Below, one piece after another: positions 2,546 through 19,920 of a stretch of DNA of 20,000 nucleotides. Where the stretch lies: IMG/VR virus record IMGVR_UViG_3300032668_000010; one strand, written 5' to 3'. Source of the stretch: an uncultured virus (IMG/VR IMGVR_UViG_3300032668_000010) (lineage: Duplodnaviria; Heunggongvirae; Uroviricota; Caudoviricetes). How positions within the stretch are numbered: position 1 is the stretch's first letter; every line of letters begins with the position of its first letter. The position numbers and the translations under genes are program-made. Under the pieces are notes generated by a model. The model saw nothing but the letters and a program-made list of their open reading frames with translations. It ran no database searches and was not told where the DNA came from.

Positions 2546-2622
2546 TAAATATTGATGTAGTTCGCGATACTGGAAATATCCAACTACTCTAACATAAAAG
2601 GACTATGTCAGCAATGTATTTA
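2546..2622 (+). promoter_or_regulatory. Structured leader of the endonuclease gene: TAAATA element, two hairpins and a closing stem over the start codon
   Basis: GTAGTT(2557-62)/AACTAC(2582-87) with inner GATA/TATC; CTAACATA/TATGTCAG around the AAAGGAC loop holding the SD; TAAATA(2546-51) complementary to TATTTA(2617-22). Confidence 0.65.
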
Positions 2623-3132
2623 CACTATTACGTCTATGCCTATTTAAGAACCAATGGCACACCATATTATATCGGAAAAGGTAAGGGAACACGGGCATGG
2701 AAGCATTACAATGATGCTATACAGCCTCCCGCAGACTTGTCACGAATTATAATACTTGAACGGAATTTAACAGAATTGGGTGCGTTAGCCATTGAACGCA
2801 GAATGATACGTTGGTATGGGAGAATAGATACGTCAACGGGGATTCTGCACAATAAAACAGATGGCGGCGATGGCGGGAGTGGAGTTAAAAAATCCAAAGA
2901 AACTAAACTTAAAATTAGCATAGCTCTTAGAAACAGATCAGCTGAAGCTCGTGCAGAAACTCGGGTAAAACAAAGTATAGCAGGGAAACAAAGAAAACAC
3001 TCTGCGGAAACTCGAACTAAAATATCAGAAGCAAATAAAGGCAAGTCAAAAATAGGTGGAATGACTGGCAAATTGCATTCCGAAGAAACTCGAGCTAAAA
3101 TGAGTTTGGCGGCAAAAAATAGACGCCGATAA
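2605..3132 (+). CDS. Free-standing GIY-YIG homing endonuclease-like protein with NUMOD3 repeats (start may be ATG 2614)
   Basis: YVYAY...YYIGKG, conserved Arg (TRAW), Glu (LAIERRMI) and Asn (LHNKTDGG); C-terminal repeats [30 protein letters not shown]. Confidence 0.88.
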
Positions 3133-6600: not shown

Positions 6601-7512
6601 TTACTTACGCAATAAATCGAGTGTAACGCAATGAAATCCTCCCCCTAATGTACGACTATGGCGCAATTCCAATGGTATAACTGTGAATTTGTGTCGCTCC
6701 AGGGTATTAATCAAGCCAATTTGATGCCGATCAACCACAACTGTGCTAGGATCCACAACTAGCATATTCATTGCAATCCACTTGCTTGCATAGGGATATT
6801 CGTAAAAACCTTGTGCTACAACTTCATTTACCCAAATCTTTTCCCACCCTTTAAACACTTGAGGGCATGTTGCTTCTGTTACACGACTAGCGTTTAACAT
6901 AACAAGTCCTTCGCGCAAGGGGACGATGGTTGAGTCGACATGTACTCCTGCATAGAAGTTACATAACTCAATATTTACTTGAGGGAATTGTTCACATAAC
7001 CATTCGTATGCTCTGCGGTTACCTGACGCACTTTCTAAGAACAACATGCTATCACCTAGACGACATACATTTGCCGCATCCAATATCATGCCTTGATTTC
7101 GTGGCATTACTCGACGGTCGTGAGTCTTGCTAGTTACTTCATCTAATACTAGTATCTCCTGATCTCTGCAGGGATACATCATTGCGGGATCAACTATGGT
7201 ATTACCGTATACCAACAATCTATCCCTGGGGCAATAATTATACATTCCCCCAGTTACTGGATAATTGCGAGGACCAGGTCTGATAACCTGTATTCCTAAT
7301 CTGTGCAAGGTAGTTGCAAGTATATTTAGATCTTCGTCAGCTTCATCTACGATGTGCTGTGGCACTGGCCCTGCGGGTACTGGTGTATCTTTCCATAAAG
7401 TCTTTTCGGACTCTTGTGCAAATACTGGATCGTCGCTGGGCCAGTTTGCATATTTGGCACTACCTACTACAACGGACTTTAATGGGTCCCATTCATTATA
7501 ACTGCTAATCAT
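6601..7512 (-). CDS. Amidinotransferase (glycine or inosamine-phosphate amidinotransferase family)
   Basis: SYNEWDPLKSVVVG, CPRD, DAANV, HVDST and LGGGFHCVTLD motifs; catalytic Asp, His and Cys all present. Confidence 0.92.
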   Translation of the reverse strand: MISSYNEWDPLKSVVVGSAKYANWPSDDPVFAQESEKTLWKDTPVPAGPVPQHIVDEADEDLNILATTLHRLGIQVIRPGPRNYPVTGGMYNYCPRDRLLVYGNTIVDPAMMYPCRDQEILVLDEVTSKTHDRRVMPRNQGMILDAANVCRLGDSMLFLESASGNRRAYEWLCEQFPQVNIELCNFYAGVHVDSTIVPLREGLVMLNASRVTEATCPQVFKGWEKIWVNEVVAQGFYEYPYASKWIAMNMLVVDPSTVVVDRHQIGLINTLERHKFTVIPLELRHSRTLGGGFHCVTLDLLRK

Positions 7513-8027
7513 TTATGCCCTGTTATTTGTAAGGTATATCTATCTTCTAAACCAATATTTGCTGCCATGTGCGGTGCATCATGCGTCCATTCAACTACAT
7601 CACCGGCACGCCAATCTACTACAGGTGCTCCCAAGGCTTCTAGGTAGTGCCCGGGCTTCCAATCTTCTAGTAGCACTAACGCACGACAAATCGTCTGCTC
7701 TTGCCCATGCAGATTAAACACTTCAATATAACGTTTATATAGGTCTTGATGGACTGGCATTACTGTTCCTGTACGCATGCGATAGTAAGCAACTCCGATA
7801 TCTTTCCATCCCATGCTCTCGTACAAATCAATGAACTTTTGATTCCACGTCGGTAATCGATGGCGCATGTCGCATAGCTCGCCGCAGATCTTGCCGGAGT
7901 AGCCCTGTGTTGTCCATTGTTCAATACTTACTGGATCGTTAAACGGTTCTGTGATGTAGTCTAAGGTCTTAAACTCGTCGTCCCAGAACTTGTCTAACTT
8001 ATACTTGGTTATTACGTGTGTTGCCAT
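7509..8027 (-). CDS. Fe(II)/2-oxoglutarate dioxygenase-like (cupin/DSBH) protein, start revised to MATHVIT
   Basis: MPVHQD (HxD) ... PHMAANIG..DRYTLQITG (distal His, Arg); ATG at 8027 shortens the overlap with the dehydrogenase. Confidence 0.7.
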   Translation of the reverse strand: MATHVITKYKLDKFWDDEFKTLDYITEPFNDPVSIEQWTTQGYSGKICGELCDMRHRLPTWNQKFIDLYESMGWKDIGVAYYRMRTGTVMPVHQDLYKRYIEVFNLHGQEQTICRALVLLEDWKPGHYLEALGAPVVDWRAGDVVEWTHDAPHMAANIGLEDRYTLQITGHK

Positions 8028-9222
8028 AATGGATAACCTTAATATTTCCTGTCTGTGGATACTTGCGCCATGGATCAATTATAACACTACCTTGTTCTAT
8101 TCTGCAATATAAACTTTGATTATCTGTTACCCCGGCATAGCCATATGTAATTTGTTGATTGTGTGCTAACAATACACAGCCCATGATTGCGTCTGGTGTT
8201 GACTCTTCTGTTAAGGGATCAATGTATGTAACAGTAATACCCATCTCTTGTAGGTAATAACCTACCAACAGGCTGTAACTACCTTCAAGGTATGCCACAT
8301 TAGGCTTGTACGCTTTACCGTGAATAAATACCGGCAAGCCCTCTCGATTATCGTAAATGTAACGAGCCATGTTCTTTGCCTGTTGCTCACGTGCTTTCAT
8401 GATAGTATCAAACAAGTCGTAACCTAGATCTAACTCTTCGGCCAAGTAGCGCAATGCGATATTATCACGAGGGTGGCAAGGACCAGCATCGCCTAAACCT
8501 GCTGTCATATATTTTGGACCCATGATACGCATTGTGCTATTAGCTAGTGCATCTGTTACTACGTCTACATTGATGTTGCCTTGTTTGATGGCAACGTCTT
8601 GAATCATATTTACTAGACCAATCTTGGCACTAATAAACGTATTGTAAAACACTTTGATACATTCTGCTTCGTCCCACGTACCTACTACGTACCTCGGATT
8701 GTTTTCCATTATTGTATTATAGAAGTCGGTCAATAAACGAGCATCGCCGGTCTCGCTACCATCTTCAGTACCAATGATAACCATCTCTGGGTTAACCATG
8801 TCCCATTCAACTGATCCCATTGCGATTAAGTATGGGTTATAAATGAAACGTGCGTTGGTAATATTGTTTTTAAGTTCTCGTCGTGTAGTGCCTGGAAGAA
8901 CTGTGGAGATAAGAACTACTAGTTGATTTGATGTTGCAAATTCATTTACTTGTTTAAGAACTGCGTTTACAATAGTGTAGTCAAAGTCTTTGTTCCGTAA
9001 ATGAGTAATAGGTTGATCGCCGCCGTAACTAGGATCGTGTGGTGTTTGGACAGCAATAAAGATTAGATCTTTACCTTCCACTGCTTGTTGCAAAGTGGAT
9101 GCAATAGTTATTTTGTCGCTAGTTACTGGATAAATATCATATCCAGTTACGTTATGCTTAGTTGCCATAGTTTCAGCACAAGCCATTCCCAATTTACCAA
9201 CCCCAATAAATCCTACATTCAT
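7999..9222 (-). CDS. ugd: UDP-glucose/GDP-mannose dehydrogenase family protein (start revised to MNVGFIGVGKLG)
   Basis: Rossmann GxGxxG, FIAVQTP, ISTVLPGTT, AECIKVFYNTF (catalytic Lys), GPCHPRD (catalytic Cys), GKAYKP; AAGGA SD before ATG 9222. Exact substrate unknown. Confidence 0.9.
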   Translation of the reverse strand: MNVGFIGVGKLGMACAETMATKHNVTGYDIYPVTSDKITIASTLQQAVEGKDLIFIAVQTPHDPSYGGDQPITHLRNKDFDYTIVNAVLKQVNEFATSNQLVVLISTVLPGTTRRELKNNITNARFIYNPYLIAMGSVEWDMVNPEMVIIGTEDGSETGDARLLTDFYNTIMENNPRYVVGTWDEAECIKVFYNTFISAKIGLVNMIQDVAIKQGNINVDVVTDALANSTMRIMGPKYMTAGLGDAGPCHPRDNIALRYLAEELDLGYDLFDTIMKAREQQAKNMARYIYDNREGLPVFIHGKAYKPNVAYLEGSYSLLVGYYLQEMGITVTYIDPLTEESTPDAIMGCVLLAHNQQITYGYAGVTDNQSLYCRIEQGSVIIDPWRKYPQTGNIKVIHYGNTRNNQV

Positions 9223-9224
9223 AT

Positions 9225-10445
9225 ATGTTTTCCTTAGATAGATTCTATAATATACTTCATAATAATTTGATATCAAAATGTGCTAACGGCAAATCTATAT
9301 ACTTTTTTCCGTTCGGTACATATGAAGACAAAGTTGTGTTGGCCAATAGCTTTAGCATCAATGACTACATAAACCCCATAAATGAAAAAGCCGATCGTCC
9401 GTTTTTTCAGTGCTATTTTGCTGACCAGGAACCGTATTATAATGAAACGTTTCCTATACTAAAAGATGCATTAATTCATCGAGATCATGTTATGCCAGAT
9501 ACTCGCATTAATATTTTGGCTAACAGTGAAAAATCCCAACTTAAAAATGATTTTGTAAAATCACAAAACTATTACGATTGGTATTATTTTTATCACGGAT
9601 TTGTAGCATTAGATTGGTATAGGGATTTTCAGTATTTGACACCAGATTCATTTAATCGGTTTGATAAAGTATTTATATGTTACAACCATCTTATCTCAAA
9701 ATATCGTTCCTATCGATTGCACCTTGTTAGTAATCTTATAGATCATGATTTAATTAAGCATGGACGGGTTAGTTTATTTCTTGAAGATACACACGGTACG
9801 TGGGAAGAAGCTGTTTGGCATCCTGACACGCCGCTTGACACCCGTGCCCGTTTAAAAATATACAAGACATTACGCGGTGTAACTGACACATTAACAATAG
9901 ATACTGTTACCCCCAACGGTACATTGAGTGCTAATGTAAAATTTGATGATTTAACTAGTGCGTTATTCCATGTTGTTACGGAAACTGTTTACTTTCACGA
10001 TAAACTACATTTAACCGAAAAGGTATTTAAGCCTATTGTTGCTAAAAGACCATTCTTCTTAGTAAGCACCCCGGGGAGCCTGGCATACTTAAAGAGCTAC
10101 GGTTTTAAAACCTTTGATCGTTGGATAGATGAAAGTTACGATACAGAACAAGATCATTATATACGCATAGAAAAAATCACAGAAGAAATAGCTCGATTAT
10201 GTGCCATGGATCGCGGTGCATTAAAACAAATGCACTTGGAAATGCAAGAAATATTAGAATACAATTTTAATCATTTTTATAACAAGTTTAAAGATATTAT
10301 AGTAGATGAGTTAGTTGATAATTTTGAACACATACTTTGTCGGATCAACAATGGCCGACAACCTAATAATCATAGTAAGCATCATCAACGATTTGAACTT
10401 TCTCCAGAATACCTCCAGGATGTAAAAAAGCGCCTTAAGCAATAA
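9225..10445 (+). CDS. Uncharacterised phage protein, putative glycosyltransferase-like (paralog of 3437..4546)
   Basis: 406-aa ORF; FHVVTETVY...HLTEKVFKPIVAKRPF...GFKTFDRWIDESYD. Confidence 0.6.
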   Translation: MFSLDRFYNILHNNLISKCANGKSIYFFPFGTYEDKVVLANSFSINDYINPINEKADRPFFQCYFADQEPYYNETFPILKDALIHRDHVMPDTRINILANSEKSQLKNDFVKSQNYYDWYYFYHGFVALDWYRDFQYLTPDSFNRFDKVFICYNHLISKYRSYRLHLVSNLIDHDLIKHGRVSLFLEDTHGTWEEAVWHPDTPLDTRARLKIYKTLRGVTDTLTIDTVTPNGTLSANVKFDDLTSALFHVVTETVYFHDKLHLTEKVFKPIVAKRPFFLVSTPGSLAYLKSYGFKTFDRWIDESYDTEQDHYIRIEKITEEIARLCAMDRGALKQMHLEMQEILEYNFNHFYNKFKDIIVDELVDNFEHILCRINNGRQPNNHSKHHQRFELSPEYLQDVKKRLKQ

Positions 10446-10497
10446 ATACTTGTACATTAAAGAACAGCAACAAGCTGTCGAGATCGAGGAGCTATGT

Positions 10498-10779
10498 ATG
10501 GGTGAAATTTTTAAGATTATTGGTGATTTGGGTTTTCCTGTTGCAGCGGCACTAGCTGGCGGGTACTTTGTATTCCTAACCATCAAACTATTACTAGGCG
10601 GTGTTCTTAGTAGTGTCAAGGGCATGGCCGGCATTATTACTGCCTTAGACAATCGTGTTAAAACGATGAACCACGATGTTATACGCATTGATACTGTAGT
10701 AAGTAACGCACTAGGTCTACGTCCTGATGTAGAACGTATTAGTCGTGCAGATGGCAAGACAGACGCAAGAAGAGATTAA
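10498..10779 (+). CDS. Small single-TM membrane protein (GFP-motif, YvrJ/holin-like), start revised to MGEIFK
   Basis: GAGGAG SD at 10486-10491, TAAATA at 10443-10448; LGFPVAAALAGGYFVFLTIKLLL TM segment followed by a coiled-coil. Confidence 0.7.
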   Translation: MGEIFKIIGDLGFPVAAALAGGYFVFLTIKLLLGGVLSSVKGMAGIITALDNRVKTMNHDVIRIDTVVSNALGLRPDVERISRADGKTDARRD

Positions 10780-10970
10780 TGAATTATATTGGTTACGATT
10801 TTAGTCTAACCGAACGTGGTATCGGATTAGATGACGAACTTGATATTGATAAATTGGGTTGGCATGCTGGAGACTATTTTCGATTAGAAAATGTCAATGG
10901 TCGTGTAATGTTGCGTAAAATAGATCCACTAGAAAAATTTCTAATAGACGGAGAATCAAAAAATGGGTGA
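10779..10970 (+). CDS. Small protein, AbrB/MazE/SpoVT-like swapped-hairpin candidate
   Basis: Coupled by TAATG overlap; KLGWHAGDYFRLENVNGRVMLRK fits the LGxxxGDx(hydrophobic)...GxxxLxK pattern. Confidence 0.5.
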   Translation: MNYIGYDFSLTERGIGLDDELDIDKLGWHAGDYFRLENVNGRVMLRKIDPLEKFLIDGESKNG

Positions 10971-11286
10971 AATAGCAGAATTAGTTAATAAGTATGGCTT
11001 TCCAATTGTCATGGCAATCGGTATGGGTTATATTATTCATTATGTGTGGAAATGGGCAACAGTTGAAGTTAAGCCAGTGATTACAGATGCTAATACTGTG
11101 CTTATTGCTCTTATTGATCGTATCCGTATGTTGGACAATGACTTGATTAGACTTAATCAAAAGGTTAATACTGTGCTACACCTACGCGGTAAAACAATTG
11201 AACACGAACGGGTCGAAGCTGAAGCAGAAATTAATAAATTAACCAAGTCAGATGACGACAAGGAAGCCGCAGGCGGCAATGGCTAA
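10963..11286 (+). CDS. Small single-TM membrane protein, paralog of 10498..10779
   Basis: GGAG SD; MGEIAELVNKYGFPIVMAIGMGY ... ALIDRIRMLDNDLIRL aligns with MGEIFKIIGDLGFPVAAALAGGY ... ALDNRVKTMNHDVIRI. Confidence 0.75.
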   Translation: MGEIAELVNKYGFPIVMAIGMGYIIHYVWKWATVEVKPVITDANTVLIALIDRIRMLDNDLIRLNQKVNTVLHLRGKTIEHERVEAEAEINKLTKSDDDKEAAGGNG

Positions 11287-11438
11287 TTAGGCTTGCAGAT
11301 ATTACCTTTAGATCCATTTAAACTATAGACACTGATCCAACGGTCAAGTTCTGTGCCGTATTCAGCAAAACGGTATGGCAGGAAATAGATGTGTAATGCC
11401 CACCATACGTAACTATCCAACACTTTGTCTATAATCAT
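11283..11438 (-). CDS. Small hypothetical protein (51 aa, MIIDKVLDSYVWWALHIYFLP...)
   Basis: ATG at 11438 overlaps the cyclase stop as ATGA; aromatic and hydrophobic N-terminus. Confidence 0.5.
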   Translation of the reverse strand: MIIDKVLDSYVWWALHIYFLPYRFAEYGTELDRWISVYSLNGSKGNICKPN

Positions 11439-13486
11439 TTTTCGTGTGCGATAAATTCGCCGTTCCAATTAGCAGGTAAGTCCTGTTGCTTCATGAACTC
11501 ACAACGCTCTATCCAAATCTTGTAGTACTTGTCCATTTGTCCGCCAAAGTTACCAACGAGCTTTTTACACATCGCGGCCGCTTCATCAAACTTCTTAGCC
11601 TTGTATAAGGCATGCATAGCATTGTGTTGTTCTCGATCTTTTGTGTAGTCTGCACCCTTGGTACGTAGAACTGTGTAGATTAAGTCTGCTACAGTCTTAC
11701 CTTTAGGTTGTAAGTTATCTAGTAACAAGTAGAAGAAATCATCTTGAGTACGGTTATAAGTTTCTGCGCCAATAATACACAATACACCATAGGCTTTACA
11801 ACGTGCTTCTAAGCGAGCAGCAGTTGATACGGAATCACCCAGAATATCGTAGCTATGTCTGTCAGTTGAGCCCATTTCACCAATAAAGCCAATACCTGTA
11901 TTACAGCCCCAGCCCATTGCAGCAGGTGGTAATCCTTGTGCTTCCATTAGTTTAGTATATTCATCTACAGCATCTAACATCTCAAGTCCTACCTTAACGA
12001 TAGTACGTGCATGATTAGGATCTTCAATAGGAGCACCGAACATATACATTGAAGCATCTCCTACATATTTTAAGACCATACCGTTATTATCTAGCACCGG
12101 CTTGCTAATAGCGTCCATATAGCCGTTCATATACCGGCCAAGACCGGCCACATCGTCGCCATAATGTTCACCAATCGGGGTAAACCCTCTAAGGTCGCTA
12201 AAAGCAACCGATACATCTTTTCGAACGCCTTGCTTTACAAGTTCGGGATTTTTCTGTAGCATCTCTACTACTTCCTTACTACAGTAACCAGCAAACTGTT
12301 TCTTAATTGCTTGCTTCTGTAAGAACTCGCTTACGAACTTCACCCCATAAGTATGGAGAGCAACCAGGACAAGACCACCAACCACCACAGTAATGTCAAA
12401 CAGCCAAGCCCTACTCGAATACATATAATTAGAAAGAGGAATAGCCCCGCCAATAACGATAACTGCTGAAAGAATGCCAACATAAGTCCACCTTGAAAGA
12501 AAAATTAATAGAATACCCAGTGCAACAAAGCCTATGACTTCTGCACCCTCGGCCCAGTCTGGACGAGTAATAACAGGACGTGTCTTGTTAGCAATTACAG
12601 TACCCAGTACAGCCGCTTGTAAATCTTGTGGTAGCATTTCACCTAAACTTGTTGCAACAGGGTTAGCTAGTCCTTGTGCCGATACACCTACTATAACAAT
12701 CTCACCTTCAAAGTCTCGAGGCAAGTCAGTTAAACTATAATGGTCTGGAGTCAATGACCAGTCAATCCATATACGTGACAAACTATCTGTAGCCACAATG
12801 CCTTGACTAGGTATACGCATCTTCTCTACACCGTTGTCATTTACTTTGATCTGTACAGTTGAATCGCCTCCGGCTACACGTAAAGTCTCCATTGCCAGGT
12901 TGGGATATAGTTGACCATTGTATGCAACTACTAACGGCATACGACGTACAACACCGTCTACTTCAGGAAATGTATTTGTAATACCAACACCTGCGGCAGC
13001 GGATTCTACTTGCGGTATATTAGCAATAATGCCAGGGAACTCTACAAACGCTTCTTGGTTGAAACTTCCAATGACCGCTGAACCTGGGGCTCGTGGATTG
13101 TTTCTAGTTGTTGCTCCTCCGACGCTAGGAAGAACTGTTGGGTATTGTTTAAGTGCTTGTACATAATCTTGGTCACGACCGAGGCGATCACGATCAGGAG
13201 TAAAAATATTGAAAACAACAAGACCAGCATTCCGCTTATAAAGATCGGCGATAATGCGGCCATAGATATCTCGACTGAATGGAAATTGTCCATATTTTTC
13301 TAGTGCCTTTTCATCAATGTTTACTACGCTAACCCCAATCGGTTCTGCTGTCTTGCTGGTTACTAGTGTATCAAAGTAACGTAGGCGAACACTTTCAACA
13401 AATGTAGGATCTGATATACGCAGAGCAGTTACAAGGGCTAGAGTTAATAAAGCAGTCCAGGGACTGGTTAGTATTTTTTTGAACAT
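11435..13486 (-). CDS. CHASE2-domain membrane-bound class III adenylate cyclase
   Basis: N-terminal TM, CHASE2 motifs (VVNIDEKAL..YGQFPFSR, DGVVRRMPL, IVIVGVSAQG), three TM helices, cyclase motifs FSDLRGFT, KYVGDA, YDILGDSVSTAARLE, QPKGK, C-terminal TPR-like tail ending WNGEF. ATG at 13486 (TTG at 13489 in ORF track). Confidence 0.93.
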   Translation of the reverse strand: MFKKILTSPWTALLTLALVTALRISDPTFVESVRLRYFDTLVTSKTAEPIGVSVVNIDEKALEKYGQFPFSRDIYGRIIADLYKRNAGLVVFNIFTPDRDRLGRDQDYVQALKQYPTVLPSVGGATTRNNPRAPGSAVIGSFNQEAFVEFPGIIANIPQVESAAAGVGITNTFPEVDGVVRRMPLVVAYNGQLYPNLAMETLRVAGGDSTVQIKVNDNGVEKMRIPSQGIVATDSLSRIWIDWSLTPDHYSLTDLPRDFEGEIVIVGVSAQGLANPVATSLGEMLPQDLQAAVLGTVIANKTRPVITRPDWAEGAEVIGFVALGILLIFLSRWTYVGILSAVIVIGGAIPLSNYMYSSRAWLFDITVVVGGLVLVALHTYGVKFVSEFLQKQAIKKQFAGYCSKEVVEMLQKNPELVKQGVRKDVSVAFSDLRGFTPIGEHYGDDVAGLGRYMNGYMDAISKPVLDNNGMVLKYVGDASMYMFGAPIEDPNHARTIVKVGLEMLDAVDEYTKLMEAQGLPPAAMGWGCNTGIGFIGEMGSTDRHSYDILGDSVSTAARLEARCKAYGVLCIIGAETYNRTQDDFFYLLLDNLQPKGKTVADLIYTVLRTKGADYTKDREQHNAMHALYKAKKFDEAAAMCKKLVGNFGGQMDKYYKIWIERCEFMKQQDLPANWNGEFIAHEK

Positions 13487-13493
13487 CAAGTAT

Positions 13494-13915
13494 TTATTTT
13501 ATTTGAATTAGGTTATCTTTGAAAATACTCCAACATTCTTCCCAGGTCCAGTGTAGACTAGATTCTTTAACTTGTGCTCGATCTAGAGTTAAGCATTTAC
13601 GAACAGCTTCTTCAAGATCCCAATCCATACACCCGTTTACACCCGGCTCAATAATGTCTATAGGGCCTTGTACCGGAAATGCCGCTACTGGAGTTCCTTG
13701 TGCCATTGCTTCTATAATAACTAAACCAAATGTATCTGCGCTACTTGGGAATACAAATACATCTGCTTGATTATAATAGTCTACTAGTTCTTGTCCTGAT
13801 TTATACCCCACAAACTTAGCCCACGGTAACAATCTACGAGCATCTTTCATGTACGGCCCATCACCTACAATGACCAACGTATATTCTGTGGGATCTAATT
13901 CTGCTAAAGTTGCCA
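13494..13915 (-). pseudogene. C-terminal half of a GT4 (GT-B) glycosyltransferase, N-terminal domain missing
   Basis: IVGDGP, ADVFVFPS, DTFGLVIIEAMAQGTPV motifs are clear, but only about 140 GT-like residues fit between the adhesin and the cyclase; upstream sequence belongs to another reading frame. Confidence 0.7.
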
Positions 13916-14022
13916 ACAAACTGCTGTATTTCAAAATAGCCGCCGCAGTCCTGTACATATAAACTAACATCGTCTAAATTTTCTTTATAATAGCGATATT
14001 TGTTTATGGTAAAGGATATCAT
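13861..14022 (-). CDS. Short ORF (53 aa, MISFTINKYRYYKENLDDVSLYVQDCGGYFEIQQFVGNFSR...), probably a 5' gene remnant joined out of frame to the GT fragment
   Basis: Hand-translated; ATG overlaps the adhesin stop as TAATG at 14022; TGA at 13861-13863 lies inside the GT sequence. Confidence 0.5.
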   Translation of the reverse strand: MISFTINKYRYYKENLDDVSLYVQDCGGYFEIQQFVGNFSRIRSHRIYVGHCR

Positions 14023-16226
14023 TAGTTACCCTGGCGAACAGTTATTGTGCCGCAGGTGGTATAACAAGTTTGTGTAACACTATAACTTTGTCCACCAGTT
14101 TGTGTTAAATTTACACTTGCTGGAGCACCGCTATTAACTAAAGATATTGACGCAGAGTTTGCGCCGCTTGCACCTGTATTTGATTGCGTTACTGTAGCAG
14201 AGTTGCTGTTACCTGTTGCACTAACACTGATATAACTGGCACTAGTTCCTGTTTGACTTGTTGTTACTGTATTGCTATTACCTGTTACACTGGCAAATAA
14301 TTGATTGCGAGCTGTACCTGTTTGTGTAATACCAACGGTGTTTAAGTTTCCATTAATAGTTACACTAGCAAACTGGCCAGCATTGGCAACAGTATTCTCT
14401 TGCACTACAGTCAAGTTATTACCAGTACCATTGACATAATCATATTGATAGTGCCCACCTTGATCAAGTCCTGTTGCTGTGCCTGTGCTACTTGTACCTT
14501 GATTTAAATTAAGAGTGTTACTACCTCCTGCAGAATACAAGTCTATTAGGTTATTACCTGTATGTGCAGTAGGATCACCTTGGCGTACAGTTATATGATT
14601 ACTGCCTCCAGTAATAATTGCAGCAGTAGCAGTAGCACCATCTAATCTATTGCCTGCACCAACTTGCGTAATATTAATTGCGTCTCCATTACCAGTTTGG
14701 TTAATATAAATTACATTATTAGTAAGTCCCGGCATAGTGACTGCGTTAACTTGATTCTGTTGTGCGGTAGTAATTGTACTAGAGCCACCCGACGTGGATG
14801 TGTTGATCAATGTAGCTGAGCCATTGTTGGCTGTAGTTGTGCTACCATCACTCCATGTTGTGGTTGTAATAGGTTGGCTATAGTAGCTAGTAGTACTACC
14901 ACTGGTACTAGATGTTGTGATAACAGAGTTTGCTGTGCTTACTACAGTTGGAGCAGAGGAACCGCCGGTTCCGCCGGTCTGTCCAGCAGTTAGCGGAGTA
15001 CTACTCATACCACCAGATAATGTATTAGTTTGTGCGGCTGTTGGATTTTCTACTCCAGTGAAGGTAGCACCTTGTCCTGTTAATCCCAAGTTACCACTGA
15101 GCAATGTTCCATTGTAGTTACTATTAGTAAAGAACAAATACAAGTTACCATTACTAGCAGTACCTTCAACTAATATGCGCCCAGTACCCAATGCTCTAAA
15201 TGATCCATCAGCATTAACCAGAATCATAGTCCACGGATTAGTTGCACTATCACTTCCTGTATTAGGAATAAACGTAACATACTGAGTACTACCGATTGCT
15301 GTCCAGCTACCTGTTTCGTATGTGCCACCTGGGCTTGTGCTATATACCTGACATGTTGCGGTTTGTGTGCAAGCACTGACATTCCATTGCGTATCTGCTA
15401 CTTGACTTGCACCAAAGTGTACTCCGGTAAATGCCGAGCTTGATAAGGTTGTTTGTGTTGCTGTACCAACTACTGTAGAAACTGCGCCATCGCTATAGGT
15501 TGTTGTAGTTGTAGGTGTTGTTACAGTTACTTGTTGATTGCCAATAATAACTGTACTGGTTGCAGTTGTTGTAGTAGTGCCTGTTACAGTAACTGCCGGA
15601 GCTCCGCCCACACCTTGTGTTGCCTGCGGAGTGACCATTGTAGTAAATCCAGCACTAGCACCAGGAGTACATGTAAAGATAGTTGTACCTGCGGCACATG
15701 CACCTGCATAGGTTCCTACTTCAATACTGGGATTGCTACTGGCATTTGTTCCAGACAAGTAGAAACTGATATTGTATGTTGAGCCTGCGGTTACACTTAT
15801 ACTTTGATAGATACCGTCGTAACTACCAACTGCGCCATCGTACCATTGATAAGGACTCCAATACCCAGCAGCCGATGGTACTGTTCCGTTTTGATACCAT
15901 ACTCCCCAATCAGCTGGTGCTTGTATTCCCACAGAGGTTGATCCACCATATTGTAAGTTACCATTGGCTAATAAGTTAGTGGATGATCCCGACTTGGTAA
16001 CTGCGGCATTGGTAAATGTCCAGTAACCTGGATCCTGTCTAAAAGCAAAACCAATGTAGTCTGCACCGGTTGTGTTGGCTGTAAAACTATAATTGTACTG
16101 TATATTACCGCTAGAATAATTTAATACCCCACCCAAGTATCCACTTGGAAGATTCTGTGCGTGTGCCTTGGGAGTACAGAATCCAACAAGGCTGGCGATA
16201 AGGATAGTGGCAAGTATTTTAAACAT
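14022..16226 (-). CDS. Secreted 734-aa adhesin-like protein: signal peptide, beta-sandwich domains, Thr-rich linkers, C-terminal curlin-like repeats
   Basis: Signal ending AHA-Q; aromatic-rich domain NLLANGNLQ...YDGIYQSISVTAGSTYNISFYL (CBM-like); C-terminal N-x-x-x-I-x-Q-x-G-x-x-N repeats; very rich in G/T/S/N/Q. Confidence 0.8.
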   Translation of the reverse strand: MFKILATILIASLVGFCTPKAHAQNLPSGYLGGVLNYSSGNIQYNYSFTANTTGADYIGFAFRQDPGYWTFTNAAVTKSGSSTNLLANGNLQYGGSTSVGIQAPADWGVWYQNGTVPSAAGYWSPYQWYDGAVGSYDGIYQSISVTAGSTYNISFYLSGTNASSNPSIEVGTYAGACAAGTTIFTCTPGASAGFTTMVTPQATQGVGGAPAVTVTGTTTTTATSTVIIGNQQVTVTTPTTTTTYSDGAVSTVVGTATQTTLSSSAFTGVHFGASQVADTQWNVSACTQTATCQVYSTSPGGTYETGSWTAIGSTQYVTFIPNTGSDSATNPWTMILVNADGSFRALGTGRILVEGTASNGNLYLFFTNSNYNGTLLSGNLGLTGQGATFTGVENPTAAQTNTLSGGMSSTPLTAGQTGGTGGSSAPTVVSTANSVITTSSTSGSTTSYYSQPITTTTWSDGSTTTANNGSATLINTSTSGGSSTITTAQQNQVNAVTMPGLTNNVIYINQTGNGDAINITQVGAGNRLDGATATAAIITGGSNHITVRQGDPTAHTGNNLIDLYSAGGSNTLNLNQGTSSTGTATGLDQGGHYQYDYVNGTGNNLTVVQENTVANAGQFASVTINGNLNTVGITQTGTARNQLFASVTGNSNTVTTSQTGTSASYISVSATGNSNSATVTQSNTGASGANSASISLVNSGAPASVNLTQTGGQSYSVTQTCYTTCGTITVRQGN

Positions 16227-16227
16227 A

Positions 16228-17370
16228 TTAATTCTGCTTGGTTGTTATAAAGGTATTGCCACCGGCATTGATTCTGTTGGTGATGGTTACATTACCACTC
16301 TGTGTCTGTACAATAGTAGAATTTTGACCTTTAGGAGTTGTAACACAACTTGTATTACTATTAGCATCACTGCGACATAACTGTACACTGATTGCATCTA
16401 CAGTAGCTTCTACCCCCGATGATTTTCTATAATCGGGAAGCAATTGATTCTTGGGTGCGGCTAACAAGTTACCAAATTCTGCAGCAAGTTGATCATTCAT
16501 TATTTGTAACATGCTTTCAAGGAAGTCCTGATCTAATAGATTACGTTGTAGTGCATTGGTATAAACTTGATTATTTTCTGCAACCAATACACTACTTAGA
16601 TCAACACCCTTAAGAAAATCTTGACTAAGTGCCGATTCAGCTGGCAACTTTTCTGCTTGTTGGCGTTGCTGAGCAGTTTTAATTTCTTGCGGTGGTGCCA
16701 GGATTAACATATTTCCAATAGCATCTTCAGTTAAGTGTAAGGTAACAGGCCTTGTGGGTGCTACATTACGTGCGGATACTTTAGTTGCCTGGAATGCTTG
16801 ATCTAATGTTACAGTACCGGCGTCATTCATAACATCAATTTTACCAGTCACACAATAACGTTCAATCTCATCGGGCAACATATTTTTACGTGGACAGCTT
16901 GGCAATAGAATAAATGTGCTGGAACCTAGCTCATCAACTGTAGCAGTAAAATCAGTACCGCGAACAGCAACGGTAGCAGTAGGAGTGTTGATAGCCACCT
17001 TATTAGGATTGTTATGAGCAATCGCCCCTGATGCGTAGCGGACTGTACCACTAGCCATGTTAAGAGCAAGTTTGCCAGCATCTTTATTTTTTGGATCATA
17101 CACGAATTCGTCAATGACCAGTTTGGAGTTTTCATTCACTTGCACCTTAGTGTCATCGGCAAACACAATACCAACCTTGCCTTGCTTGGTAGTAATGGCG
17201 TCAGCCATATCAACACCGGTACCTTTACTACCAGTAAGTGTTGTTTTTGCTCGTTGTATTTGCGGAGGATTGTTTACTTGTTCTGTGATTGTGCCAATGG
17301 CAGCATGAGCGGAAATAGACAACAATAATGTTGCCCAAATTAATCGTCTTGTTGCTTGAACCATACACAT
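16228..17370 (-). CDS. FecR-domain periplasmic protein with curlin-like C-terminal tail
   Basis: Signal peptide ending AHA-AIG; FecR motifs DAITT..G...IVFADDTKVQVNENSKLVIDEFVYDP, GTVRYASG, TPTATVAVRGTDF, G.IDV.NDAG.V.L. Confidence 0.85.
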   Translation of the reverse strand: MCMVQATRRLIWATLLLSISAHAAIGTITEQVNNPPQIQRAKTTLTGSKGTGVDMADAITTKQGKVGIVFADDTKVQVNENSKLVIDEFVYDPKNKDAGKLALNMASGTVRYASGAIAHNNPNKVAINTPTATVAVRGTDFTATVDELGSSTFILLPSCPRKNMLPDEIERYCVTGKIDVMNDAGTVTLDQAFQATKVSARNVAPTRPVTLHLTEDAIGNMLILAPPQEIKTAQQRQQAEKLPAESALSQDFLKGVDLSSVLVAENNQVYTNALQRNLLDQDFLESMLQIMNDQLAAEFGNLLAAPKNQLLPDYRKSSGVEATVDAISVQLCRSDANSNTSCVTTPKGQNSTIVQTQSGNVTITNRINAGGNTFITTKQN

Positions 17371-17516
17371 CGTTGTAAGTCTCTCATTAATTGATCTTTT
17401 GGCGTACCAGTAAGTCTGTGCGCCAGCTCTATAAAATCTACGGCTCTACTAGCCACATTAGACTGACCATCGCTCCACTGTTGATATACTGTGTTTAAGA
17501 AGCGAAGGTCTGTCAT
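17340..17516 (-). CDS. Small hypothetical protein (58 aa, MTDLRFLNTVYQQWSDGQSNVASRAVDFIELAHRLTGTPKDQLMRDLQRCVWFKQQDD)
   Basis: Hand-translated, below the ORF-track cutoff; starts 3 nt after the curlin stop and fills the gap before the FecR gene. Confidence 0.65.
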   Translation of the reverse strand: MTDLRFLNTVYQQWSDGQSNVASRAVDFIELAHRLTGTPKDQLMRDLQRCVWFKQQDD

Positions 17517-17519
17517 ATA

Positions 17520-18419
17520 TTAATGATGCTGTACAATGTTCCAAGTATTACTGCTACCACTACTTTGAATATTTGTAGTGTTGTTACCGCTTGTAGCTGT
17601 TTGGTTCACAGTAAATGTATTGCTATTACCAGTTAACCCTAATACTAACGTGTTATCGTTACTACCAGTTTGGCTTGCTGTAATAGTATTACTAGAACCT
17701 GTTAAACTTCCAACTACTGCTAGGCCAGTTGCATTATAACCACCAATAGTAATACTGTCGCCATTGGAGCCACCAGTTTGTGTCAACCCAAATGTATTAC
17801 TTGCACCTGTACTGTTTAAAGTAACACTAGCATTAGTTGCCGCTGTTGTTGTAGTCCCTTGAGTCATTGTTAGACTATTACTTGCGCCACCGTTCATTGT
17901 GATATTATCAGTATTATTTGTACCGTTAACAATAGCAACAATAGAGTTACTACTACCGCCTGCTGTCACAGCGGTAAAGTTGTTACCTGTACCTAATAAG
18001 TTAATATTCAAATTGGCAGTATTACCAGTTTGTGTTACACTAATATTATTACTTGCACTTGTAGCAGAGCCATCATTGTTACTATTGATCACTGCTGTTG
18101 CATTGTTACCTGTCACAGAGTAATTGTAATTGTTACCAGTTAATCCGTTGGCCACAGTTGTCTGGATACCTAATTGTAAGGTATCGCCTGTGCCTACTTG
18201 ATTTACTGTTACGTTATTACTATTACCAGTAATTACTGCCGGTGTTGTTGCACTTGAACCTGTGCCTTGTACACCTTCTACTGCATCACCTGCGCCATTT
18301 TGTGTAATTGAAATGTTACTGTTACTACCTGATTGATTGATGTAGATGGTGTTATCTGCACCAAATGCACTTATAGTCACTACGGCTAGCATTGTTGTTA
18401 TTATTTTCGCTAGTTTCAT
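17520..18419 (-). CDS. Curlin-like repeat protein (CsgA/CsgB-like major subunit candidate)
   Basis: AAGGAG SD, Sec signal (AFG-A), then almost entirely N/S/T/G/Q beta-arc repeats such as DNTIYINQSGSNSNISITQNG, SNNISVTQTGN, SNTITASQTGSNDN. Confidence 0.8.
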   Translation of the reverse strand: MKLAKIITTMLAVVTISAFGADNTIYINQSGSNSNISITQNGAGDAVEGVQGTGSSATTPAVITGNSNNVTVNQVGTGDTLQLGIQTTVANGLTGNNYNYSVTGNNATAVINSNNDGSATSASNNISVTQTGNTANLNINLLGTGNNFTAVTAGGSSNSIVAIVNGTNNTDNITMNGGASNSLTMTQGTTTTAATNASVTLNSTGASNTFGLTQTGGSNGDSITIGGYNATGLAVVGSLTGSSNTITASQTGSNDNTLVLGLTGNSNTFTVNQTATSGNNTTNIQSSGSSNTWNIVQHH

Positions 18420-18490
18420 TTTACTACTCCTTTTGGCCCCTGGCCTTATGTCCTGCGGTCCCTGCTTCTCCGCTGGTTGTTTTAGTTACT

Positions 18491-19453
18491 TCACTTTACT
18501 ACCCCCAACTTTGCTTCTACATCTGCAGGTAAGCCTGTTTTATTAGACATACCTAATGGAATTGTTGGCTCGCCCTTGGCATTAGGATTAATATACGCTG
18601 GCGCTACTTGGTTGTAGTCCCATACCCCTTTGCGTTGGCCTTCCTTGATTAACTCTACTACACTTGCTTCAATAGTTGATTTAAGTGCGATAGTGGTTGC
18701 TTCGTTGATTGTTAAACCTGATTCAAATTGGAATATTGCTGCCGCAGCATCTGTTGCGCCGGTATTAGGTGCGCCAATTTGCGTAACCATATGTCCCAAG
18801 CTACCTGGATCTATACTCTTAAAGATTGCAATACTATCTGCTGTTGAGTAAATGATCTTGGTAACAGTTACACTGGCTAGAATCTTACCGGTGTTAACAC
18901 TGATAGCACGTAGACTAATTGTGATAATATCTTTACTGTACTGAGTTGTTGGGCCAATACCAAGGAAGTTATATCCTGTACCACCAGACTCCAGTCCGGT
19001 ATCGTAACCAATAATTCCGCCTTCAATAATTACGCCGGCAAACTGTAATGGCATTAGCTTCTGTGCATCTTTACCTTCATATGCTTGACGCATTTGAGTA
19101 ATGATTAACCGCTCTTTGGTCAAGGCATCAATGTTTCCTCGCTCAACAACATCAAACCATAAACCGTGACCAACGTCTTGCAAACTGCGAATTAATAGTG
19201 CATCGCCACCTTGTGTAACTGCTGTACTAAAACTGGCAATACCAGGAACTGCTTTACGTTGTCCTGTTTTATCTGCAAAGTTGTAGACAGCCACAGTTAA
19301 ACGACCAGCAGCAGGTGGAGGAATAGCATCAAACTCTTTTTGTAATTCGTTTTTAGGTACTACAGGTTTTGCCTCTAGTACTCCCATTTTTTGGCTTATA
19401 GCACAACCAGAAAGTGCCGCTATTACCATTATGGATAAGAGTAATTTTTTCAT
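18491..19453 (-). CDS. csgG: Curli secretion channel CsgG/HfaB family lipoprotein
   Basis: Lipobox LSGC; VAVYNFADKTGQRK, FSTAVTQG, WFDVVER..IDALTKER.II, IEGGIIGYD, GIG...QY..D.ITISLRAISV.TG.IL..V...K.I.S. Confidence 0.93.
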   Translation of the reverse strand: MKKLLLSIMVIAALSGCAISQKMGVLEAKPVVPKNELQKEFDAIPPPAAGRLTVAVYNFADKTGQRKAVPGIASFSTAVTQGGDALLIRSLQDVGHGLWFDVVERGNIDALTKERLIITQMRQAYEGKDAQKLMPLQFAGVIIEGGIIGYDTGLESGGTGYNFLGIGPTTQYSKDIITISLRAISVNTGKILASVTVTKIIYSTADSIAIFKSIDPGSLGHMVTQIGAPNTGATDAAAAIFQFESGLTINEATTIALKSTIEASVVELIKEGQRKGVWDYNQVAPAYINPNAKGEPTIPLGMSNKTGLPADVEAKLGVVK

Positions 19454-19920
19454 TAGTTTCCGCCTCCGGTAATGTTAAATTGACTCAATGGAATATTAAT
19501 TGTAGTTACGTTACCCACGTTGTCTGTTACTTGCAATTGGATTTGACTACCATTATTGTTATAGTAGATCGTGTTGCCCTGGAAGGTAATCTGGCCAGTA
19601 CTACTGCTACCGCCGGCAAACATTGCAGTGGCTAAATTCTGCGAAATCTGTGCATAAACACGCGATTCCAGGTTGGTTAGGAACTGATTTATAGGGGTAT
19701 TGGCTGCATCTGCCTTGGCTTGTTGCGCGGCCGCTGTAAGTGCTTGCTGAATAGTCAATGCACGTTGATACTGCTGATTTTCCAAGGCCATTTGGAAAGT
19801 TGAGTAGCCGTTACCATTCAAACTAGCACTTTTAAATGAGTAGTCTGATATTGTAGTAGCGTAGGTGGTTGTCGCGGATAAGGCGATTGCGGTTAGAATA
19901 ACCTTGTTGATAATTCTCAT
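19453..19920 (-). CDS. csgF: Curli assembly component CsgF-like protein
   Basis: Signal peptide, YSFKSASLNGNG N-terminal pore-binding-type segment, QFLTNLESRVYAQISQNL..AMF helix, C-terminal VTD..G.VTTINIP; coupled to csgG by TAATG. Confidence 0.8.
   Translation of the reverse strand: MRIINKVILTAIALSATTTYATTISDYSFKSASLNGNGYSTFQMALENQQYQRALTIQQALTAAAQQAKADAANTPINQFLTNLESRVYAQISQNLATAMFAGGSSSTGQITFQGNTIYYNNNGSQIQLQVTDNVGNVTTINIPLSQFNITGGGN

Follow-up and report, generated by a model that had tools for sequence, protein, structure and literature searches.

A putative freshwater jumbo-phage copy of the viral type VIII secretion cassette with a FecR-domain protein and a predicted CHASE2 cyclase

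A stretch of 20,000 nucleotides from an uncultured virus (IMG/VR record IMGVR_UViG_3300032668_000010), hereafter the window, carries genes of the curli-type or type VIII secretion system (T8SS) on the same strand as a gene coding for a membrane receptor with a cyclase-homology domain. The window corresponds to bases 42416-62415 of a 78,032-bp virus record with a CheckV completeness of 19%. We read it, with a probability of roughly 55%, as a freshwater, jumbo-type, T4-like copy of the published viral T8SS cassette with FecR and adenylate cyclase, working as a fibre combined with a sensor. The cassette itself is already published, and what is new here is its lineage, its habitat and its cargo, namely a head-curlin fusion and the scar of a glycosyltransferase gene. 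Beyond the published cassette, the present analysis adds bacterial FecR-CHASE2 pairs whose outputs are of three kinds, a copy of the cassette on a bacterial chromosome, an Asn-to-Ser replacement in the cyclase and a series of lectin-type head-curlin proteins occupying a variable slot.

Seven open reading frames (ORFs) on the minus strand span positions 11435-19920 of the window. They encode a 155-aa CsgF-like protein (19453-19920), a 320-aa CsgG outer-membrane pore lipoprotein (18491-19453), a 299-aa curlin-repeat fibre subunit (17520-18419), a 380-aa exported FecR-fold protein (16228-17370), a 734-aa fusion of a head, a middle domain and curlin repeats (14022-16226), a 158-aa remnant of a family 4 glycosyltransferase (GT; 13494-13970) and a 684-aa receptor cyclase (11435-13489). 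The FecR and cyclase genes are 2.7 kb apart. Pfam and family profiles recovered the six genes named in the initial annotation, co-oriented and with the same limits; overlooked at that stage were the GT remnant and three linked small genes at 10450-11286. The junctions had been described as mostly 0-4 nt, which holds for three of the six (an overlap of 1 nt and gaps of 1 and 4 nt), the others measuring 51, 71 and 149 nt, the last of these between the curlin and FecR genes. As reported then, no CsgE, CsgC or CsgD family was found with Pfam among the 27 ORFs scanned in the window. The phage context was likewise borne out, the 78,032-bp record being a virus record and not a bacterial chromosome: its remaining genes include those for DNA ligase, exonuclease, homing endonucleases, a head maturation protease, Hsp20 and endolysins.

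A T8SS region was described in 2022 from podo- and myovirus pelagiphages (PMC9599517), and the available portion of that paper lists it as HK, CsgF, CsgG, CsgA/B, FecR, often a second CsgA/B, and adenylate cyclase. The same genes stand in the same order in the window (CsgF, CsgG, curlin, FecR, second curlin, adenylate cyclase), and both systems are viral, have alphaproteobacterial affinities and are without CsgC/D/E. According to that portion, the region derives from Alphaproteobacteria and its transcripts occur in metatranscriptomes; aggregation, superinfection defence or import were proposed as its roles. The supposition that only the pore was previously known was thus mistaken, since the T8SS cluster with FecR and adenylate cyclase is in print there and the GenBank records of phage Melnitz name a T8SS CsgF, a CsgG, a curlin associated repeat protein, a FecR domain protein and an adenylate/guanylate cyclase. 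Two other papers (PMC7029224, PMC9004378) discuss the CsgF/CsgG part, and their main texts, in the portions available, are without FecR, cyclase or CHASE2. Curli, cyclase and FecR go unmentioned in a 2026 paper on freshwater jumbophages, and the literature on CsgG in freshwater jumbo phages yielded nothing relevant.

The window nevertheless differs from the system of PMC9599517 in several respects. A GT remnant is inserted before the cyclase. The published system is marine only, the word 'freshwater' being confined to the reference list in the portion of the paper available, whereas the copy described here is freshwater and has T4-like relatives of 353-364 kb. In the same portion the term CHASE2 is absent and FecR is taken as an iron regulator. 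Moreover, the 'HK' genes of that system precede csgF, whereas the window has no kinase domain and carries its homologues of the small genes past the cyclase, on the opposite strand; at a guess, the small genes preceding csgF in phages HTVC008M and Melnitz are the 'HK' of that paper. HTVC008M, a Pelagibacter phage, and Melnitz, a Methylophilales phage, are both marine and have genomes of 141-147 kb. Each carries six syntenic homologues of window genes (gp014-gp019 and gp99-gp104, respectively), with tblastn identities in HTVC008M and Melnitz of 36.7% and 44.6% for the cyclase and 43.1% and 37.7% for FecR. Judged by these similarities, the window genes share descent with theirs. The second curlin of both phages is shorter (341 and 441 aa) and has no counterpart of the window's head domain; the GT remnant is missing, and the small membrane-protein genes are located directly upstream of csgF.

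Conservation across viral loci was assessed from the cyclase, for which 260 relatives are present in IMG/VR; the best 80 of these 260 loci were analysed. CsgF, CsgG and FecR lie upstream of the cyclase on the same strand in 62 of the 64 viral loci having at least 9 kb upstream of the cyclase homologue. FecR and cyclase genes therefore do accompany csgG and csgF in related genomes, a co-occurrence whose failure had been named beforehand as fatal to the proposal. The order is constant, with CsgF, CsgG, a curlin of about 210-365 aa, FecR, a variable slot and the cyclase. This slot contains one protein ranging from 191 to 1445 aa, in many cases ending in a curlin domain, as well as 0-7 further ORFs. 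A Pfam scan covered 85 of the 92 slot proteins (the other 7 all come from L066 and L070) and detected F5/8 type C (discoidin) domains in 14, PA14 domains in 3, autotransporter beta-domains in 4, metallophosphoesterases in 4 and full-length GT4 enzymes of 331-342 aa in 4. Usually, what follows FecR is a lectin-type head fused to curlin. In a FastTree phylogeny with a midpoint root, from which a length filter removed HTVC008M, the cassette-linked cyclases, Melnitz included, form one clade (69 of 83 rows, support 100). Ka/Ks was 0.07-0.32 for all six genes wherever Ks was unsaturated.

The autotransporter beta-domain proteins found in the slot are of 674-761 aa (L008 7921-9945, L009 5932-7965, L034 3868-6153 and L043 7124-9175); since they lie between FecR and the cyclase, a second surface-display system shares the island.

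The carrier is most likely a freshwater T4-like jumbo phage, because relatives with a cyclase 71-81% identical to that of the window belong to records of 353-364 kb (98-100% complete) with a T4-type Gp23 capsid gene, and because near-identical DNA occurs in sequencing runs that carry the label lake water or freshwater metagenome. None of the 21 runs listed with near-identical DNA is an RNA run, and megablast of the window against deposited phages returned no match.

The window CsgG (Pfam CsgG, E 7.2e-40; lipobox LSGC) aligns over its whole length with E. coli CsgG (3x2r, E 5.8e-39, residues 3-215 and 241-283). Among what we take to be the constriction-loop residues, the Phe is kept and the Tyr and Asn are replaced. 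CsgF (Pfam CsgF, E 8.9e-12, profile positions 5-132 of 132, 45.7 bits against a cut-off of 25.8; phrog_35372, E 2.3e-41) has no sequence match among solved structures, and NPxFGG, presumably the N-terminal motif of E. coli CsgF, is not evident in its sequence. All five non-cyclase proteins, namely CsgF, CsgG, the two curlins and FecR, have a signal-peptide-like start. As a separate observation, the CsgG of some relatives bears C-terminal bacterial SH3 domains (L009 762-2096; L030 2570-3892, SH3_3 E 8.4e-14; L011 4495-5745), a tail of the cell-wall-binding type that the 320-aa CsgG of the window does not have.

The 299-aa subunit is rich in T, N, G and S and matches Curlin_rpt with 21.9 bits (E 1.7e-4; cut-off 20.7 bits); its repeat layout and composition agree with this assignment, and the profile of its family (A4, 42 sequences) matches the curlin-repeat protein 8c50 (E 5.1e-22) and E. 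coli CsgA (8enq, E 2e-4). The 734-aa protein obtains 16.8 bits with Curlin_rpt when taken whole and 23.3 bits, in 3 stretches, when its C-terminal 217 aa are taken alone, while its family profile (A3, 64 sequences) matches 8c50 (E 1.6e-18) at profile positions 526-702, which is the C-terminal part. Because the family profiles match solved curlins, the curlin identity of both proteins is firm; by sequence criteria they are genuine curlins, one of them with a large non-curlin head. The larger protein comprises a signal peptide, the head (about 24-205), Thr-rich linkers, a middle domain (about 209-414) and curlin repeats (about 500-734). Its head (residues 1-205) is common to 96 of 120 homologues, including discoidin-curlin proteins and one autotransporter (P0096), and its middle domain (209-414) is also found behind a PA14 domain. 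The Atlas entries obtained at 0.85 for this protein, DUF642 and galactose-binding-like, are leads only. The curli system of E. coli, CsgBAC-CsgDEFG, has CsgG, CsgF and curlin-repeat subunits in common with the window, which differs from it by the absence of CsgE, CsgC and CsgD, by a 500-aa passenger on one subunit and by a constriction in which only the Phe is kept. Export of the curlins through CsgG and their assembly into amyloid fibres are predicted.

The FecR-fold protein (Pfam FecR, E 2.9e-11; phrog_37870, E 4.5e-114; alignment A1 of 52 sequences) was modelled with AF2 at a mean pLDDT of 73.8. The model consists of a signal peptide, a beta-domain (about 25-210), a low-confidence helical linker and a confident, conserved 6-strand C-terminal domain (320-380). 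Its residues 54-224 superpose on the C-terminal signalling domain of PupR (6ovk; Z 15.0, rmsd 2.6, 131 aligned). A structure search with the model gave no clear fold match for the C-terminal domain; a Foldseek match to 5ix9 ('cell surface anchoring domain') was set aside, as it covers residues 22-118 rather than the C-terminal domain and its Z of 7.0 is background. The signal peptide is followed by the beta-domain from residue 26, FecR is the only family found in the protein, and the anti-sigma cytoplasmic domain and membrane anchor are absent. The protein shares with the FecA-FecR-FecI system the periplasmic FecR fold and the idea of a relay from the outer to the inner membrane. In contrast to that system, the phage one has no anti-sigma domain, membrane anchor, ECF sigma factor or TonB-dependent transducer (PF04542 and PF00593 were each found in 0 of 4 phage records, 3 of these 98-100% complete), and the inner-membrane partner would be the cyclase. 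When CHASE2 (25-315) and the FecR domain (24-215) were modelled as a complex, with alignments for both, the score was 0.00 in a run without controls.

The link between FecR and CHASE2 comes from bacterial genomes. When one genome per species was searched with the FecR alignment, 78 loci were obtained, 9 of which hold CsgG/CsgF-type cassettes. A CHASE2 receptor is located within the locus in 27 of the other 67, namely the loci closest to the phage FecR in which CsgG and CsgF are lacking, as counted with a purpose-built profile that may miss divergent CHASE2 domains. Sixteen of these 27 receptors have a cyclase domain, and three further ones are, by Pfam, a histidine kinase, a hybrid kinase and a PP2C phosphatase, the remaining 8 lying outside the Pfam check. 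The FecR partners in these pairs carry TPR or RTX parts or nothing recognisable beyond the FecR domain. Similar pairs have been described: the available portions of the papers report, in Burkholderia, a LysM-FecR protein paired with a CHASE2 kinase in the BiofilmReg operon (PMC5192318) and, in Campylobacterota, a cluster of a CHASE2 cyclase, a phosphodiesterase, FecR and TPR proteins (PMC9239204). As in the window, an exported FecR-domain protein lies beside a CHASE2 receptor in both; LysM, TPR or RTX parts replace the phage C-terminal domain in the bacterial partners, the outputs may be kinases and T8SS genes are missing. The pairing has also been noted in S. meliloti, where the periplasmic FecR-domain protein SMc02177 belongs to the same regulon as the CHASE2 cyclases (PMC5498481, portion available), and the system of CyaD1/CyaD2/CyaK, NsrA and Clr raises cAMP in answer to an external protein through the outer-membrane protein NsrA (PMC13001267, portion available). 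Unlike the window, the S. meliloti system has no curli genes. We assume smc02177 to adjoin cyaD1. Bacterial gene neighbourhoods thus favour a functional link between FecR and CHASE2.

The whole cassette also exists in a chromosomal form, because in L091, an 82.6-kb Caulobacteraceae contig from a metagenome-assembled genome (MAG), genes for a metallophosphoesterase, CsgF, CsgG, two curlins, FecR and a CHASE2 cyclase (7056-13076) sit between ordinary bacterial genes, with methylmalonyl-CoA mutase, acyl-CoA dehydrogenase, amidohydrolase, DsbA and TauD found in flanks that are bacterial on both sides. The FecR of this contig has the same kind of C-terminal domain as the phage protein, and its metallophosphoesterase is nearest to SpdA/CpdA, below the cut-off. 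The same ORFs are present in a second MAG (L092). Cassette contigs binned as bacterial are a mixed set: L085 is a misbinned contig of a T4-like phage (RegA, gp44, gp45), L093 is ambiguous, and in the flank scan, which left out L092, only L091 had clearly bacterial flanks. Separately, relatives of the phage FecR domain occur in Pelagibacteraceae (SAR11) genomes (L097-L105, L113 and L120), in FecR-domain proteins of 189 aa or 511-516 aa, and in L097 a CHASE2-PP2C phosphatase gene lies 1.4 kb upstream. Hosts of marine phages therefore own FecR and CHASE2 parts.

The receptor cyclase (CHASE2, E 3e-38; phrog_35576, E 3e-183) is predicted from hydropathy to have a first transmembrane segment, a periplasmic CHASE2 domain (about 25-315), three further transmembrane segments (about 312-386) and a cytoplasmic class III cyclase-homology domain (about 420-615). 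The latter scores 47.1 bits with Guanylate_cyc against a cut-off of 21.9 (E 2.8e-12), and the protein matches 41 cyclase sequences of the PDB at E<=0.001, among them CyaB (3r5g, E 2.7e-18). Residues D432, D478, K474, D548 and R559 are kept and are invariant in 61-62 of 62 phage-family cyclases; from the alignment with CyaB and general knowledge of the family, we take them to be the metal-binding Asp pair, the Lys/Asp pair that recognises adenine and the transition-state Arg. In bacterial relatives, as in the basal cassette versions L088, L091 and L093, the Lys is accompanied by Thr or Ser and the transition-state Asn is kept, whereas the phage-family cyclases have the Lys with Asp, and a Ser in place of the Asn. 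Because of that replacement, the protein is better called a cyclase-homology receptor predicted to make cAMP than a proven adenylate cyclase. Conservation extends to a region of about 65 aa after the catalytic domain (residues 617-684, window 11435-11641), in which Cys, Trp and Tyr hardly vary; it belongs to no Pfam family and is also present in CHASE2 cyclases of Thalassospira. Additionally, a 61-aa ORF without a family (11283-11468, minus strand) overlaps the cyclase stop and has homologues in 20 viral loci (E<=1e-4), where they come just behind the cyclase and share its strand.

By homology, Sec-exported CsgG and CsgF would form an outer-membrane pore, the substrates of which would be the 299-aa curlin and the 734-aa protein with its curlin C-terminus and non-curlin N-terminal head. 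The infected cell may then grow curli-type fibres displaying a sugar-binding-type head, and such fibres could make the cell sticky, with the outcome that it aggregates, attaches or is protected from other phages by a shield or decoy. The bacterial gene neighbourhoods suggest that the exported FecR-fold protein acts as a periplasmic co-sensor of CHASE2 and not as an iron regulator. The cytoplasmic domain would produce a cyclic nucleotide, most likely cAMP, which would be read by host proteins through an assumed host receptor, because the near-complete relatives encode no cNMP-binding domain (none was found in the 3 scanned). More speculatively, the C-terminal domain of FecR might tie the sensor to the pore or to the fibre subunits, the cyclase output then reporting the state of secretion or of the fibre through a conjectured physical coupling of fibre, FecR and cyclase. 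A fuller version of this idea is doubtful at present: FecR-domain proteins in general would be modular co-receptors of CHASE2 sensors, with the FecR domain turned towards CHASE2 and the remainder of the protein providing the input; the phage C-terminal beta-domain would dock on CsgG/CsgF or on a curlin, and engagement of the lectin-headed fibre, or the secretion load, would be passed over the periplasm to a cyclase with an active site that changed from Thr to Asp and from Asn to Ser in the lineage giving rise to the phage clade. If true, a type VIII secretion system would for the first time be seen to drive a cell-surface signalling pathway, and this inside a phage-infected cell.

Several observations weigh against a fibre that works together with a sensor. 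Two of the 64 viral loci depart from the common arrangement, L080 having no T8SS genes before the cyclase and L042 having the T8SS block inverted and downstream of the cyclase. Cultures infected with Melnitz showed no clumping, according to the available portion of PMC9004378. The head domain of the 734-aa protein has no Pfam family. A curlin repeat in the C-terminal domain of FecR was considered and dropped, since Pfam returned nothing at E<=10 and the hhalign probabilities were 9.8% and 3.1%; a control comparison of the same domain with CsgF gave 18% in the local run that gave 9.8% for curlin. The transition-state Asn of the cyclase is Ser555 in the window and Ser in 62 of 62 phage-family sequences, which leaves the product and the rate unproven, and in a mammalian enzyme an Asn-to-Ser change lowers activity. 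The reading also depends on an assumed host cAMP receptor. CsgG or CsgF is present in 0 of the other 67 bacterial loci, so the signalling pair, occurring as it does in bacteria without curli genes, could be a separate module. Finally, compared with the closest relative (L004), the T8SS genes have a Ks of 0-0.065 and the cyclase one of 0.315, which implies that the two ends of the cassette can be exchanged separately. What survives of the signalling fibre unit put forward in the initial annotation is therefore its conservation, its curlins and the neighbourhood link of FecR with CHASE2, while a contact of FecR with the fibre or with CHASE2 stays conjectural; likewise, the claim of a cAMP output retains a cyclase domain with most catalytic residues and loses the transition-state Asn.

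The last two of these points also speak for two co-inherited but separate modules, in which the T8SS would make fibres and an independent FecR-CHASE2 cyclase would serve host takeover by answering a periplasmic cue unrelated to curli. FecR and the cyclase are moreover parted by the variable slot with its 0-7 unrelated genes, as would suit modules that merely travel together. In the related viral loci, however, FecR is invariably flanked by the two curlin genes rather than adjoining the cyclase, and FecR proteins with the phage-type C-terminal domain occur only alongside curlins. Among 401 alphaproteobacterial genomes sampled, a FecR-domain match was found in 130 and a full-length match in 1, which is the cassette-bearing genome. 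An alphaproteobacterial MAG (L090, 8922-11733) has the order curlin, full-length phage-type FecR, curlin, with no CsgG, CsgF or CHASE2 within about 9 kb on either side, so that there FecR goes with curlins in the absence of the cyclase. All cassette-linked cyclases, furthermore, fall in one clade. Taken with these points, the independence of the two modules seems unlikely, albeit worth keeping in view.

A role in lysis timing was proposed for Melnitz, with CsgG/CsgF as a gated pinholin- or secretin-like channel (PMC9004378, portion available), to which the small membrane proteins and the cyclase could be added as regulators. The proposal was argued there from modelling and synteny. In the window, the small single-pass membrane proteins weakly match a holin family (phrog_4898, E 1.6e-4, residues 1-21), and an endolysin gene (Hydrolase_2, E 5e-22) is found at 604-1140 on the minus strand. 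Yet that endolysin is about 10 kb off, CsgG resides in the outer membrane while holins work at the inner one, and lectin-type heads on curlin fit display and not lysis. The absence of csgA/csgB was assumed in the available portion of PMC9004378, but both curlins are present and conserved in the window as well as in Melnitz. Lysis timing is accordingly improbable. An uptake channel with iron sensing, in which an ungated CsgG would import nutrients or siderophores and FecR would sense ferric citrate, draws on the family name, on the lack of a CsgE gate among the 27 ORFs and on the uptake mentioned in the available portions of PMC7029224 and PMC9599517, but is hardly credible given a FecR protein without the anti-sigma part and anchor of true FecR, phage records without ECF sigma factor or TonB-dependent receptor, bacterial relatives paired with CHASE2 receptors instead of FecI/FecA, and curlins that it leaves unexplained.

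Under the fibre-and-sensor reading, if fibres are indeed made, the phage would give its host a new sticky surface and could alter aggregation, particle attachment and superinfection in lakes and oceans. The FecR-CHASE2 pairing, with its cyclase, kinase and phosphatase outputs, bears more generally on what CHASE2 domains sense. Melnitz and HTVC008M are in culture, which makes the question testable.

Three small genes on the plus strand, beyond the cyclase, belong to the cassette as well. They encode a 107-aa single-pass membrane and coiled-coil protein (10963-11286; phrog_18771, E 3.3e-30), its 109-aa paralogue (10450-10779; phrog_18771, E 8.2e-31) and, between the two, a 63-aa protein without a family (10779-10970) that has homologues in the same place in viral loci. 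Library scans of the genes at 10450-11286 found no known family and no kinase domain. In 58 of the 60 viral loci with enough sequence, homologues of the 107-aa and 109-aa proteins are encoded no farther than 5 kb downstream of the cyclase and on the strand opposite to it; in 49 of the 60, a homologue of the 63-aa protein occupies the same place. Of the 50,697 phage records deposited, only the 6 that also hold FecR contain the small membrane proteins.

The GT remnant (Pfam Glyco_trans_1_4, E 4.8e-22) retains the C-terminal half only and has a chimeric 5' end. Over its residues 19-158 it shares 80% identity with a 332-aa GT encoded in L006, of which residues 193-332 are matched. The DNA of the window is identical to that of L004 until about 57 nt into the GT ORF and then diverges. 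At this recombination scar (window 13440-14080; L004 8830-9150), a short sequence also present in L004 has been joined to the 3' half of a GT4 gene, giving a chimeric ORF, and a joint at this position is in line with T8SS genes near-identical to those of L004 and a cyclase that is not.

Scans for regulatory signals were of limited help. The T4 late-promoter motif TATAAATA has a single match in the window, off the cassette, where 2.5 are expected by chance. Sigma-70 promoters (35 found, 24 expected) and terminators (10 found, 6.2 expected) were uninformative, and no tRNA or Rfam family was detected in the window. A terminator-like hairpin, which is a pattern match only, lies at 17439-17457 (minus strand) within the 149-nt gap separating the curlin and FecR genes, where it could lower read-through past the major subunit. 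Several ORFs of 243-425 aa without a family are found between the endolysin gene and the other recognisable genes in this part of the window, which are a homing endonuclease with NUMOD3 (2605-3132, plus strand) and a UDP-glucose dehydrogenase (7999-9276, minus strand; phrog_9148, E 2.4e-100).

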